Shown: positions 4,166-63,569 of the stretch, piece after piece
Numbering within the stretch: position 1 is the first letter of the stretch
Layout of the letters: each line of letters begins with the position of its first letter
Assembly: GCA_963848965.1 (NCBI GenBank)
Contig: CAWKFG010000004.1
Location: 672,001-736,000, forward strand
Length of the DNA stretch: 64,000 bases
Direction of reading: 5' to 3'
Origin: an uncultured bacterium
GTDB lineage: Bacteria; Babelota; Babeliae; Babelales; Babelaceae
Notes under the pieces: model-generated
Databases searched by the model: none
The model's input: only the letters and a program-made list of their open reading frames with translations
Told to the model about the DNA's origin: nothing
Made by a program: the position numbers and the translations under genes

Positions 4166-6319
4166 TCAACTCTTTTGTTGGTTACCAAAAAGAGTACTCC
4201 ACGTTTCTTTAAGAGAAAGAAGCAACCGGGTTCCACTAGGTAATTTTTGATAATAAGCATCAAGTATCTGTACAATTTCGGGTCTTTCATACGTCTGAGC
4301 ATACATGAGTGCTGTATAACCATAGATATCTCGAGTAGTAATATACTCTAGGGAAGGCGCTTGTTCGAGGATGCAGTTTACTATGTATGTATTTTTAAAT
4401 ATACAAGCCCATATTAAGAGCGTTTGGTGAAGCTCATTACATGAAGAAGTAAAATCGCGTTGCAGATGCATCTGACAATACTGTCTTGTATTTTCAAGGT
4501 ATGCTTGTACATCATCTCTTTGAAGCAATTTTAAAAGCAAGCACAAATCTTTGTATCTCTTTTCTCTCTTCAGTTTTGTAAAGGTATTATACAGTTCAAT
4601 ATCCATAATATCTTCGCGACCAACAATACCAGCTTCTTTATCAAGTAAAAGTGTTGCTATGTCAAGAGCATCTAAAGCTGCTGCATATGATAAAGCGCTT
4701 TTACCATCCTTATCAAACATGTCTATATGTGCTCCAGCAGATAAAAGAAATTCTACAAAGGGCTTATTTTTATGTTTTACTGCATACATTAAAGCTGTTT
4801 TACCACTTCTCCCTTTACCATTAATGTCTACTCCTAGTCTCACTAGATGTTTCACAATATGTGCTTTATTAGCGCTAGAATATTTTAAAAATTCGGTATT
4901 TCTATGCCTTTGCTGTGTAAGATCTTTGCCTAAAACTCTGTGCATAATTGCTCGATTGCCTACTCTCAGAGCTAAGCTTACAGGAGTTTCTCCTCTTTGA
5001 TCTTCACTATCAATAGAGGCACCATGTTCTATAAGAATATCTACAAGCTCTTTCCATTCTGCTTCTATTGCAATCATGAGCGGCGTTTTGCCATCTTCAT
5101 CAGGGGTATCACAGCTGATCCCTCGTTTTATAAGAAATTGTATCATATTCTTTTTGGCTTCGCTTTTCTCAACTCGTTCCCTAAGAAGATTTTCATCTTC
5201 AGTAGGTAGATCTAAAAGAAAGTTTTCCTTCTCTTTAGATACGCTACGTGGTGTATATTTTAATATACACATTTGATCTCGAAGAACGCGTACTACCAGT
5301 GGTTCCGACTGCGCATGAAGATCTGCACCTAACTGTAGCATCATAGCTACTAAAGGGATGTGCCCACAAAATATGCCCACTGTTAAAACTGAATTGCGCT
5401 CTTGCGATGTTCTTGCCAGCACTGCTGCTAGATCTGCATTACCTTTTTCAGCAGCATACATAAGAGCTTCTTTGCGGTTATGTAATGGTACATGATCAAC
5501 AAGCAAAAGTGCTATGTCCTTATTGCCTTGAACTACTGCTGATGTTAAGGCTTTTTCTGCTCTTACATCAAAACTCATAAGATTTCTAACGTGTTCAATC
5601 TGTCCTTTATACACCGCTCTCTTTAAAGCTTCTTCTACAGTACTGGTCATATCATAGGCATAAGGAGAATGTAGTTGCGACAGTTTCGCTACAATGCGCT
5701 TATGTCCTGCTTTTGCAGCACAAGTAAGAGCCGTATCTCCATCTAAAGACTTAATTGTACTCTCTGCTCCTGCCATAAGCAGTAAATCTACAACAGATTC
5801 ATGCCCTTTTTGAGCAGCAAGCATTAATGGTGTTACCCAAGAATCACCATAGTGGCAGCTTTCATCTACGCTTACAGTATGCATTAAAATTTCTTTTACT
5901 GCGCTTGCATCACCTTTTCCGACTGCAGTCATGAGCTGTGCTTGCAAAGATTTGCTCTGATAGGCATATGAGCCTCTATTATCAAAAACATCGTTAAAAA
6001 GCCTTTGGGTATCAACAGATCTACTTGCAAGTATTTCTAAAGCTCTATGCTGCTCAAAGCTACCCTTTTGCACTACCTCAATGAATGACTTACCGTGTAA
6101 AATGCTTGTAAGCTGCTCATTATCCTTTTTTTGTAACGCTCTCTCTAAAGCTTGTATATTGTGCTCATACGCATGCAAGAGAATACCACGACACTTGTCC
6201 ATGCGCTCTCCTCTCTCTTTTGTATAGTTTAGACAGCGTGGTAATGTGTGCTTTGTCTTTTCCATACCATAAGAAAGAGAGGTAAAAGTAATGAATAAAG
6301 CTACGATTTTCGTAACCAT
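4166..6319 (-). CDS. Exported ankyrin-repeat protein (717 aa)
   Basis: Signal peptide ending SYG-ME; TPLMLAAQKGH and GKTPLMIA repeats; shared C-terminal module QTLLIWACIF...DIYGYTALMYA; RBS AAGGAG. Confidence 0.92.
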   Translation of the reverse strand: MVTKIVALFITFTSLSYGMEKTKHTLPRCLNYTKERGERMDKCRGILLHAYEHNIQALERALQKKDNEQLTSILHGKSFIEVVQKGSFEQHRALEILASRSVDTQRLFNDVFDNRGSYAYQSKSLQAQLMTAVGKGDASAVKEILMHTVSVDESCHYGDSWVTPLMLAAQKGHESVVDLLLMAGAESTIKSLDGDTALTCAAKAGHKRIVAKLSQLHSPYAYDMTSTVEEALKRAVYKGQIEHVRNLMSFDVRAEKALTSAVVQGNKDIALLLVDHVPLHNRKEALMYAAEKGNADLAAVLARTSQERNSVLTVGIFCGHIPLVAMMLQLGADLHAQSEPLVVRVLRDQMCILKYTPRSVSKEKENFLLDLPTEDENLLRERVEKSEAKKNMIQFLIKRGISCDTPDEDGKTPLMIAIEAEWKELVDILIEHGASIDSEDQRGETPVSLALRVGNRAIMHRVLGKDLTQQRHRNTEFLKYSSANKAHIVKHLVRLGVDINGKGRSGKTALMYAVKHKNKPFVEFLLSAGAHIDMFDKDGKSALSYAAALDALDIATLLLDKEAGIVGREDIMDIELYNTFTKLKREKRYKDLCLLLKLLQRDDVQAYLENTRQYCQMHLQRDFTSSCNELHQTLLIWACIFKNTYIVNCILEQAPSLEYITTRDIYGYTALMYAQTYERPEIVQILDAYYQKLPSGTRLLLSLKETWSTLFGNQQKS

Positions 6320-6340
6320 AATAAGCTCCTTTCATTGAGT

Positions 6341-63000: not shown

Positions 63001-63569
63001 CCTTCTGCTAATGCCATCATAAGAGCAGTATCTCCTTGTTCGTTCCATACATCTATCTCAGCGCCTGCTGCAATAAGACGCTGAACTGTTTCTATATCAC
63101 CGGCACTTGCTGCAAGCATAAGAGGTGTATTTTCAAGACCCCCTTGCACATTTACTTGAGCTCCCCTTTTTATAAGAAGGTCAACAATTTGAGTATATCC
63201 TTGAGAGGCTGCGCAAATAAGAGCAGTATTGCCTTCAATATTGCGTGCATTAACATCTATATCATATGAAAGAATCATTTTTACGCAATCATAATGACCT
63301 TGGAATGCTGCAATTATCAGAGGAGTATTTCCCACCTTTGTACATACGCCATCTTTAGAATAAAACTCTTTATAAGCTAAGAGTTTCTCTGCATCGCCAA
63401 CACACAATATGTGCCAAAAATCAGCAAGTCGACTCTCCCCATTATCGTCTGTACGAGCTTCCTTAGAAGGTTCAAAATCTTTTTCTTGTACCGCCCTTTT
63501 CATCCCATAATTTTCATTGCTCACAAGCAGAGCGATTGCTAATACTAACAGCACTGTGATATTTTTCAT
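60069..63569 (-). CDS. Large exported ankyrin-repeat protein (~1166 aa)
   Basis: Start MKNITV; signal peptide NYG-MKR; two ankyrin blocks separated by a Pro-rich linker; ends YPALFK. Confidence 0.94.
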   Translation of the reverse strand: MKNITVLLVLAIALLVSNENYGMKRAVQEKDFEPSKEARTDDNGESRLADFWHILCVGDAEKLLAYKEFYSKDGVCTKVGNTPLIIAAFQGHYDCVKMILSYDIDVNARNIEGNTALICAASQGYTQIVDLLIKRGAQVNVQGGLENTPLMLAASAGDIETVQRLIAAGAEIDVWNEQGDTALMMALAEGHLAIAKILLDGIKSSWQRCTYINRVNNTGLSAFLIAGLNGHYDIMRQLTEMNTDVIVEGKIYRATLIMAAHRGKADLIKILNELDTGCYITEATFTEAFMIAIDAQHKEFVEEMMRQGININVRGQNNCTPLIWAVYTQRPDMVKLLLQYKPFLDAQDAGGSTALMWAVFVGNSEILRILINAGVHLNIQDKEGNTALMHAIIKDNREAAALLLEHNADVYITNTEQKDVFSLAAIHCSAAIHRLLVPHKNRLQAVVDEPAVPVPVQPVPMEFEEDIQPRVEAPFELPLQIEHYTPTLQENSPALKRKRHHYPQNKFLKAVCERNLKALERLTSKSIDVENPSVKRAFVEAVNIGDVEATKMFLKAGIDANATNQYNEPMLIIVLRSKNLEIASLLLDHGASVNKICAKGSLPLCVTAGMRWIEGIKLLIDRGADVTMSDGKGCTALMMAIHSDWWKKIPEKLILEIIAPLLEKGTPINVKNSEGRTALMMAAGRGSKEILSYLLERGADSNAQDENGNTTLMQIAEHSTSYIVSQENKDILTKYLLEYGADSYIKNNKGETVLMKAAETGSLELVKLFIEKGVDPHARSTEGLTALEYAAKALKKDCVQLLLKSSLQNTQSPEQLRILGVYAAQVGDCALLRDLLERGLDINEGIRAFWYNKQGDRLLYILEIAAGHGQKDIVEMLLNNSKLNIQMQGQFALVEAFSKGQKEIADMLIKAGITLKGQTEVGKSTLHKAAYAGHGEVIEKLQEAGVNVKSAGNKALLSAAESGKLSTVSALIKAGARLDINAKKHRCAKERISQRNDTVVQILEISQHPEVKQYLKNPQASLKRKYQRDEYGQTVLMWACMFGHVEHVQALLKLSLPQYYINAQDNYGYTALHYAFIIGNYTIVRMLAPYCSRGINLSDGKGVTILSYAIKREDIKLINDLLAAGARPTISDLKLAAQQERKDIFIKLLFFVARTDKNEKYPALFK

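Follow-up and report, generated by a model that had tools for sequence, protein, structure and literature searches.

Many ankyrin proteins of the Dependentiae carry signal peptides. In Babela massiliensis, 79 of the 126 ankyrin proteins have a predicted signal peptide (PMC4378268), and in Chromulinavorax destructans this applies to 78% of the ankyrin proteins and to 44% of all coding sequences (PMC6561590). Sec plus type II secretion has been proposed as the export route of Dependentiae ankyrin and repeat proteins (PMC4378268, PMC6561590). Here, we analyzed a stretch of 64,000 nucleotides (the window) from the genome of an uncultured bacterium of the Babelaceae, referred to as G000 (1.73 Mb, 37% GC, 5 contigs, 88.7% complete). 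The window, G000:C4:672001-736000, encodes twelve proteins whose hydrophobic leader ends in a small residue that is immediately followed by Met, i.e., by a Met at position +1 of the predicted mature protein. The abundance of signal peptides on ankyrin proteins is shared with the published genomes, whereas the +1 Met rule, its restriction to one class of proteins, and its patchy distribution are not described there. The word "methionine" does not occur in the main texts of the two genome reports or of the comparative TM6 paper (PMC4776705). Full-text literature searches returned no published description of the rule, which seems to be undescribed. New in the present analysis are the whole-genome numbers, the finding of a single signal peptidase, the substitution seen in orthologues, and the observation that the rule is not phylum-wide.

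The twelve N-termini had been named in the original prediction, and their letters match as written. Read directly, each leader starts with a stretch containing Lys, continues with a run of uncharged hydrophobic residues, and closes with a small residue right before the Met. We formalized this as a test that requires a hydrophobic uncharged core starting within the first 15 residues, a small residue at −1, any residue X, and then 12 hydrophilic residues; all twelve leaders pass it with Met as X. An AAGGA/AGGAG-like Shine–Dalgarno (SD) motif lies upstream of the first ATG or GTG in each of the twelve genes (Table 1). Among the 34 genes wholly within the window, the automatic classifier returned 11 Met-type and 10 other signal-peptide-like proteins, three of the latter being cytosolic ATPases or a 56-aa open reading frame (ORF); the twelfth Met-type gene was missed by the classifier, which called its start at 63614. 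Met-type proteins thus make up 12 of about 20 plausible signal-peptide proteins in the window. With Met accounting for 1.6% of residues, the chance of finding at least 12 of 22 is about 1e-16, a value that overstates independence, as 8 of the 12 are ankyrin proteins. By Pfam, the set comprises these eight ankyrin-repeat proteins (318–1763 aa), one protein with a weak HD domain, one calcineurin-like phosphoesterase, and two small proteins without family. The description of the twelve as unrelated goes too far for the window; it does hold at the level of the genome, where the Met-type proteins fall into 112 clusters.

Genes of the whole genome were called by our own procedure combining long ORFs, codon usage, and SD motifs. 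The resulting 1539 genes were classed as 262 Met-type, 341 other signal-peptide-like, and 936 other, so that about one protein in six and 43% of the 603 signal-peptide-like proteins are Met-type, most of them ankyrin, WD40, LRR, or RING proteins or orphans. The observation is hence confirmed and is far larger than the window, and the expectation that the rule could be used genome-wide was borne out in that it yields a candidate set of 262 proteins. Met is the commonest residue X in the formal test despite its low share of all residues, and its abundance-normalized enrichment at this place is 4 to 20 times that of any other residue. A histogram of the first internal Met shows a sharp peak at residues 19–23 (238 genes versus about 75 expected from the flanks). 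Single-linkage BLAST clustering of the 262 mature parts gave the 112 clusters mentioned above, including 95 singletons, with an ankyrin family of 110 members as the largest. The genome-wide peak, the number of clusters, and the rank of Met at this place together remove the objection that the rule merely reflects paralogy. In 80 control loci from many other phyla (1.29 Mb, gathered with an ATP synthase beta fragment), the identical pipeline found 8 Met-type among 139 signal-peptide-like proteins (6%; 131 other). Gene caller and signal-peptide test were both our own and crude, which could raise the suspicion of a gene-calling artefact or chance. We regard this as practically negligible: the peak is visible in the plain histogram, the pipeline gave the low value above in other phyla and 0/29, 0/13, and 0/14 in some relatives, and public gene calls of orthologues contain the leader.

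The leaders are translated, and the Met is not a start codon. For the figures on SD motifs, residue preferences, and positions −3/−1 we used a stricter subset of 204 proteins. Of these, 84% have an SD motif ahead of the first start, a figure that is partly circular because SD motifs entered the choice of starts, and 1.5% have one ahead of the internal Met, a figure free of this circularity; the corresponding values are 12% for random internal ATGs and 71% for starts of non-exported proteins. Leader DNA has T at 55–71% of second codon positions and the codon periodicity of hydrophobic coding sequence, and nine independent pairs of leader paralogues differ at 49, 38, and 26 sites in codon positions 3, 1, and 2, respectively. 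No nucleotide motif, internal promoter, or SD motif was found around the Met in leader DNA; codons at −1 and +2 are used about as in the genome as a whole, apart from a mild preference for T just before the ATG. An untranslated leader with the second Met as the real start had been named as a possible refutation, and the SD placement and the codon periodicity speak against it. The residue after Met is Glu in 50%, Gln in 14%, and Lys in 10% of the subset (Glu 51% and Gln 12% when each of the 112 clusters is weighted once), whereas position 2 of non-exported G000 proteins is Lys in 15%, Ser in 10%, Ala in 9%, and Glu in 5%. Because the following residue is so unlike normal second residues, the Met is neither a fossil nor an alternative start. 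In the latter case, the internal ATG would serve as a second start and give a leaderless cytoplasmic isoform beside the exported one, which would fit an in-frame ATG at a fixed place in 262 genes and one leaderless ankyrin gene starting METK. We consider this very unlikely, as the SD frequency before these Mets lies below that of random internal ATGs and far below the 71–84% of real starts, the second codon is GAA/GAG and not of the AAA type typical of real G000 starts, and it is hard to see what purpose a copy of host-directed repeat proteins would serve in the bacterial cytoplasm.

Regarding the type of leader, the 12 window and 262 genome-wide leaders all have the positive n-region and the uncharged h-region of about 7–16 residues of Sec-type signal peptides. 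A lipoprotein leader cut by signal peptidase II does not apply, as +1 is Met and not the invariant Cys; a lipobox-like string occurred in only 9 of 445 signal-peptide-like proteins in a separate pass, and Cys, where present, stands at −1 (8%). The RR motif of Tat leaders was found in none of the twelve window leaders. The leaders are also not of the type IV pilin or pseudopilin kind, since the hydrophobic segment precedes the cut and the stretch after Met is hydrophilic. As had been proposed, the residues before Met fit the −3/−1 rule of signal peptidase I. In the stricter subset, −1 is Ala (32%), Ser (27%), Gly (26%), Cys (8%), or Thr (6%), which is small by selection and hence no evidence, and −3 is Leu (31%), Ser (14%), Thr (13%), Ile (12%), Ala (9%), or Val (7%), with about 90% allowed residues (L, S, T, I, A, V, C). 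Tyr occupies −2 in 37%, and Lys occupies position 2 of the leader in 35%. The consensus thus reads L/S/T/I/A/V at −3, Tyr at −2, Ala/Ser/Gly at −1, directly Met, and then Glu (50%), Gln, Lys, or another polar residue. A position weight matrix of −8 to −1, blind to Met and trained on half of the Met class, placed the best site exactly before Met in 81 of 131 held-out proteins. From these patterns we infer cleavage directly before Met. A single Peptidase_S26 match was found in G000 (123 bits; Table 1) and likewise in most rule-bearing relatives, and families lacking the rule account for most duplicates. Hence the Met does not signal the action of a second peptidase, and a signal peptidase dedicated to the Met class was rejected.

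To characterize the class, we ran a Pfam scan on all Met-type (41) and other signal-peptide-like (78) genes wholly inside 20-kb tiles of G000:C4:1-400000, genes crossing a tile border being left out. The Met-type sample comprises 13 ankyrin proteins (one with PP2C), four WD40, one LRR, one RING, one AAA, one AAA-ATPase_like, and one FGase protein, and 19 proteins without family; no envelope family was found among the 41. The AAA-ATPase_like protein is a false Met-type call. The other signal-peptide-like sample includes BamA, two SurA-like proteins, a solute-binding protein, SppA, and a Cache protein; glycosidases, an esterase, and a nucleoside hydrolase; five Gly_transf_sug glycosyltransferases, a sulfotransferase, and a dual-specificity phosphatase; two ankyrin, one MYND, and one DnaJ protein; 39 proteins without family; and about nine plainly cytosolic false positives (MutS, RuvB, YchF, GluRS, MurG, and others). 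Eukaryote-like domains occur in 19 of the 41 Met-type and in 4 of the 78 other proteins (Fisher P = 2e-7, with kin not independent). The suggested enrichment of Met on eukaryote-like over periplasmic proteins was therefore found, and Met was not seen on classical envelope proteins. The five exported glycosyltransferases lie in G000:C4:300001-320000 and at a second locus, and three of them have weak matches to the TcdA/TcdB catalytic glycosyltransferase domain; they are accompanied by a sulfotransferase, a methyltransferase, and an IRX15/GXM-like protein, all with leaders lacking Met.

A crude ankyrin motif retrieved 60 proteins from the whole genome, of which 43 were classed as Met-type; at least five of the remaining 17 are Met-type by eye and were missed through errors of the heuristic or the start call. 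The rule is close to universal for intact ankyrin proteins and common on orphans. In about seven of the 17 ankyrin ORFs, the frame runs upstream into further ankyrin sequence with no start in view, e.g., C4 (−) g0012 and C1 (+) g0064 and g0091, which are start miscalls or broken or fragmented genes. The only leaderless ankyrin protein starting with "ME" that we noticed is G000:C5 (−) g0082, a 759-aa protein that starts METKF and has a stop codon just upstream. The class ranges in size from very long repeat proteins to many small orphans of about 100–300 aa. This range bears on the idea that Met tunes signal peptidase cleavage, or the export or release of very large or fast-folding repeat proteins, with no later reader. 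The wealth of very long repeat proteins in the class fits that idea, as does a post-Met region enriched in Glu, Gln, and Pro. The many small orphans do not, relatives export homologous ankyrin proteins without Met, and we know of no preference of signal peptidase I for Met at +1, so that we hold this explanation to be improbable.

The predicted mature N-termini themselves are strongly biased. Asp, Glu, Asn, or Gln follows Met in 190 of the 262 proteins (73% versus 20% background), whereas small residues, next to which methionine aminopeptidase could remove the Met, are depleted (10% versus 37% background) and so are hydrophobic ones (4% versus 29%). The commonest predicted starts are MEK (42), MEP (28), MEQ (19), and MKR (16); 72 of the 262 have another residue than Asp, Glu, Asn, or Gln after Met, including 30 with Lys or Arg. 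Farther downstream, the post-Met region is richer in Glu, Gln, and Pro than in other exported proteins, and the classes show no notable difference in composition over the last 20 residues, so that no C-terminal co-signal was seen. The start expected by the original prediction, i.e., Met followed by an acidic or amide residue as in NatB substrates, is thus matched by the 190 N-termini. The rule may mark proteins that are sent to the host. We favor, tentatively and at somewhat less than an even chance, the reading that the Met-Glu/Gln N-terminus is made for the cytosol of a eukaryotic host and marks host-directed proteins. A single signal peptidase I would cut before Met, and the exported protein would start with Met-Glu, Met-Gln, or Met-Lys-Arg. 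Since housekeeping envelope proteins are processed without a Met, the Met would be dispensable for cutting and would be kept by selection as the class mark of host-directed proteins. The product would be an N-terminus suited to the eukaryotic cytosol, resembling an unprocessed native start with the pattern of NatB acetylation, and residues permitting Met removal would be avoided after Met. A start with Met would also spare the protein an N-terminal Glu, Gln, Lys, Leu, or Tyr, residues that would be exposed by ordinary cuts in G000 and are targets of eukaryotic N-degron pathways. This host-cytosol reading is favored both by the second residue, which is NatB-like, and by the scarcity of small residues at that place. 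NatB specificity is set mainly by the first two residues, Met plus an acidic second residue, and the catalytic subunit Naa20 alone acetylates peptides in vitro (PMC7782713). The likeness to NatB substrates ends with the origin of the N-terminus: NatB substrates are mostly nascent chains at the ribosome, whereas the N-terminus here would come from a bacterial peptidase after translocation, Glu far exceeds Asp, and acetylation is only proposed.

We then compared G000 with relatives. Sixty genomes were drawn from the phylum, all classed as "same order", and 25 relatives were sampled over 80–100 kb each with the identical pipeline. Counts of Met-type among all signal-peptide-like proteins, which come from small samples with differing local gene content, were as follows: the own family f1 (G002 11/34, G003 20/42, G019 4/31, G018 12/50, G010 7/26), f10 (G033 14/32, G042 19/38), f15 (G038 19/39), f17 (G040 14/41), and f18 (G044 11/39, G060 7/38, G053 6/23, G077 12/47, G054 7/35). 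The remaining families gave 8/46 and 2/27 (f5: G070, G028), 4/20 (f19: G073), 4/22 (f4: G027), 2/24 and 4/35 (f11: G071, G069), 3/37 and 0/29 (f12: G035, G076), 2/22 (f2: G025), 0/13 (f6: G029), and 0/14 (f3: G052). Differences between families persist within one kind of protein. Among ankyrin proteins with signal peptides, 9 of 10 were Met-type in G003 and none of 4 in G070; in G071, it was none of 7 ankyrin proteins in the random sample and 3 of 16 at further ankyrin loci, none of the three with Glu next. One stretch of that genome (G071:C1:1389000-1432000) contains dozens of small ankyrin genes (about 150–300 aa) whose leaders typically end in ILPAS or ALPAA. The rule is therefore not a general property of the phylum: some families follow it strongly, whereas several sister families show no more than background levels, and this includes their ankyrin proteins with signal peptides. 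Some of the relatives that follow the rule have Asp after the Met as often as Glu.

Orthologues of the window proteins point in the same direction. A 77%-identical orthologue of the phosphoesterase keeps the Met (SSICG-MHNGYLPY, the hyphen marking the predicted cut), and in a 49%-identical orthologue, which has a leader (SSLHA-EQVSYLPY), the Met aligns with Glu at +1. The Met of the phosphoesterase therefore arose by substitution, with the leader already present. A 33%-identical homologue of the phosphoesterase is assigned by NCBI to "Candidatus Dependentiae bacterium", which points to the Dependentiae for G000, as do traits published for this phylum, namely abundant signal peptides, an expansion of ankyrin proteins, and no secretion system other than type II. 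In more distant relatives, the HD protein and the phosphoesterase have homologues whose leaders lack Met, and the leader is likewise included in the public gene calls of orthologues. This bears on a further explanation, a fossil start, according to which the genes once began at the Met, e.g., after transfer from a eukaryote, and the leader was added upstream, leaving a functionless relic. The many members with eukaryote-like domains and the position of the Met exactly at the junction would agree with such an origin. Besides the unusual residue after Met, however, there is no trace of an old SD motif upstream of it, the Met has been retained across 112 clusters that are unrelated and strongly diverged, it aligns with Glu in the leader-bearing phosphoesterase orthologue, and relatives have the same families without Met; we therefore give a fossil start still less credence than a second start. 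The rule is a derived lineage trait of some Dependentiae families that was acquired in parallel by many unrelated protein families, which speaks for selection, be it by a reader or by a way of life specific to the lineage.

Such a reader could also be bacterial. The new N-terminus would then be a tag for a second sorting step, read by a bacterial machine that divides proteins leaving the cell from those residing in the envelope. This machine could be the type II secretion system, which has tandem secretins, a vesicle-loading step, or an uncharacterized step at the outer membrane. Consistent with this, the Met and envelope classes share the signal peptidase and the c-region and differ at +1/+2. 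The rule also tracks lineage and not protein family, as seen for the ankyrin and phosphoesterase homologues, which is what a lineage-specific reader would give and favors a tag somewhat. About 31 kb past the end of the window, G000 has a cluster of three secretin genes (open frames of 1153, 818, and 796 aa; Table 1); the genome also contains two TolC-like genes, and VirB4 and FHIPEP were not found in the 88.7%-complete assembly. On the other side, no candidate reader was identified, and exported enzymes that plausibly leave the cell lack the Met. To our knowledge, known type II substrates are not recognized via a linear N-terminal tag. Two tandem large secretins are present in all 61 genomes of the phylum, i.e., in rule-bearing and rule-free families alike. 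An extra short secretin (about 500–600 aa) occurs in f2, f3, f4, f6, f11, and f19, families with a weak rule or none; this pattern may reflect phylogeny, and we make no causal claim. The type II system is the only secretion system that the genome report names for Babela (PMC4378268), and elsewhere, sorting by the residue that a signal-peptide cut exposes at +1 has been proven (PMC4329603). Overall, we consider a bacterial sorting tag the main rival of the host-cytosol reading, possible but doubtful.

Several points weigh against the host-cytosol reading favored here. Under the N-end rule, a +1 Ala, Ser, Gly, or Thr would stabilize the protein as well, so that avoidance of N-degrons alone fails to explain Met. 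A need universal in eukaryotic hosts should be obeyed by ankyrin-rich relatives such as G071, yet it is not. Asp seldom follows Met (about 2% of the stricter subset) though NatB takes both Asp and Glu, MDT (three proteins) is the sole Met-Asp start among the top tripeptides, and the MKR subclass (16 proteins) is not of NatB type. Some effector-like exported enzymes lack the Met, including the Gly_transf_sug glycosyltransferases, the dual-specificity phosphatase, and the MYND protein. The cut site rests on the −3/−1 rule and on a matrix that misses 50 of the 131 held-out sites, and the classifier is crude, with about 9 of 78 signal-peptide calls being cytosolic and several Met-type proteins missed. 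NatB, moreover, acts mostly co-translationally (PMC7782713). The interpretation offered by the original prediction is, overall, partly supported. With a little less assurance than for the host-cytosol reading, we suggest that, in one clade of Dependentiae, mature Met-Glu/Gln (or Met-Lys-Arg) might be a host-targeting address that directs Sec-exported proteins on into the eukaryotic host, read either by a lineage-specific translocation step or by the N-terminal machinery of the host.

The other exported proteins of the window provide the contrast to the Met-type set. They comprise two DUF4097 proteins, one periplasmic solute-binding protein, two paralogues, and the products of ORFs starting at 31800, 40104, 52478, and 63794, the first three of these without a Pfam family match. 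Those that had been listed as free of Met indeed lack it, which applies to the DUF4097 protein at 37455, to the entries at 27132, 29748, and 31800 (leader ends in Table 1), and to the proteins at 52478 (LEA-K) and 63794. The products of the genes at 27132 and 29748 are probably paralogous envelope proteins; the two genes flank a gene for an AI-2E family transporter. For the 257-aa exported protein starting at 31800, a protein atlas gave only a lead (score high) to Peptidase_C39-like and IpaJ-like cysteine peptidases. The 68-aa ORF starting at 33556 has a perfect leader followed by MQH and an early stop, and may be the remnant of a longer effector gene. Three predicted mobile or defence-like ATPase genes lie amid the effector genes, one encoding AAA-ATPase_like with PDDEXK_9 and two encoding AAA_14 plus DUF4143.

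Table 1. Features discussed in the text. Positions refer to the window unless a contig of G000 is given; the mature start is the predicted one.
Feature	Position	Strand	Leader (end)	Mature start	Met codon	Remarks
Ankyrin protein, 717 aa	4166..6319	-	MVTKIVALFITFTSLSYG (whole leader)	MEK	6263-6265	SD AAAGGAG before first ATG
Ankyrin protein, 1505 aa	6341..10858	-	PASS	MNR	10802-10804	
Ankyrin protein, 1690 aa	11214..16286	-	ELCC	MKR	16224-16226	
Ankyrin protein, 1763 aa	16316..21607	-	TIVG	MKR	21545-21547	
Ankyrin protein, 1752 aa	21687..26945	-	DILC	MKR	26883-26885	
Small ankyrin protein, 318 aa	31990..32946	-	SSYA	MEQ	32887-32889	
Protein, 132 aa	33146..33544	+	TCIS	MEQ	33209-33211	No Pfam family
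ORF, 68 aa	33556..33762	+	NSYA	MQH	33613-33615	GTG start; no Pfam family
Protein with weak HD domain, 615 aa	49497..51344	-	SAEA	MQK	51285-51287	
Calcineurin-like phosphoesterase, 592 aa	52790..54568	+	SISG	MHN	52856-52858	
Ankyrin protein, 1715 aa	54832..59979	+	PLYG	MKR	54889-54891	
Ankyrin protein, 1166 aa from 63569 start	60069..63569	-	ENYG	MKR	63501-63503	In-frame ATG further upstream at 63614 likewise open
DUF4097 exported protein	37455..38597	+	LYS	APT		Contrast, without Met
Periplasmic solute-binding protein (SBP_bac_3)	40261..41031	+				Contrast, without Met
Exported protein, probably envelope	27132-28550	-	LSA	WN		No Pfam family
Exported protein, probably envelope	29748-30953	-	IHA	WN		No Pfam family
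Exported protein, 257 aa	31027-31800	-	VQA	K		Without Met; no Pfam match
Three predicted ATPase genes	35749-37311, 42604-43791, 48177-49421	+				
Three clustered secretin genes	G000:C4:767163-774663					
Peptidase_S26	G000:C1:323737-324447					

The Dependentiae, widespread obligate parasites of protists, encode eukaryote-like proteins by the hundreds, although no secretion systems other than Sec and type II have been reported for them. The rule provides a testable predictor of effectors, with 262 candidates in G000, about half of them orphans, and a handle on a second transport step or on bacterial evasion of host N-terminal quality control. Sister lineages with and without the rule form a natural comparison set. 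For annotation, the invariant in-frame ATG about 20 codons downstream is a warning, as it can mislead start calling.

Compared with known systems, the leaders are classical Sec/signal peptidase I leaders in their short positive start, uncharged hydrophobic core, small residues at −1/−3, and single Peptidase_S26. They differ in that Met follows the predicted cut in 43% of cases (6% in other phyla), with Glu or Gln next and on one functional class. Residues directly after a leader-peptidase cut carry sorting information in the lipoprotein +2 sorting rule and in the lipoprotein export signal of Bacteroidota, and PEXEL processing in Plasmodium leaves x-E/Q/D at the new N-terminus of host-exported proteins. 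These systems use signal peptidase II or plasmepsin V, other residues, and other organisms, and no lipobox is present here. The ASAFAP motif of algae with secondary plastids is another case, in which Phe at +1 after the signal-peptide cut decides on later transport (PMC4329603). Shared with ASAFAP are the role of the first exposed residue, a motif spanning the cut site, and the genome-wide prediction of a class; this likeness is an analogy, and what is observed here is the class-specific distribution. ASAFAP is eukaryotic, based on the endoplasmic reticulum, and aromatic, precedes a transit peptide that is later removed, and is read by plastid import, whereas the present motif is bacterial, features Met-Glu, and has an only hypothetical reader. 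If true, a host-targeting code of this kind would be the bacterial equivalent to PEXEL, RxLR, or ASAFAP and would make effectors predictable from sequence alone, in a phylum without a type III, IV, or VI secretion system.

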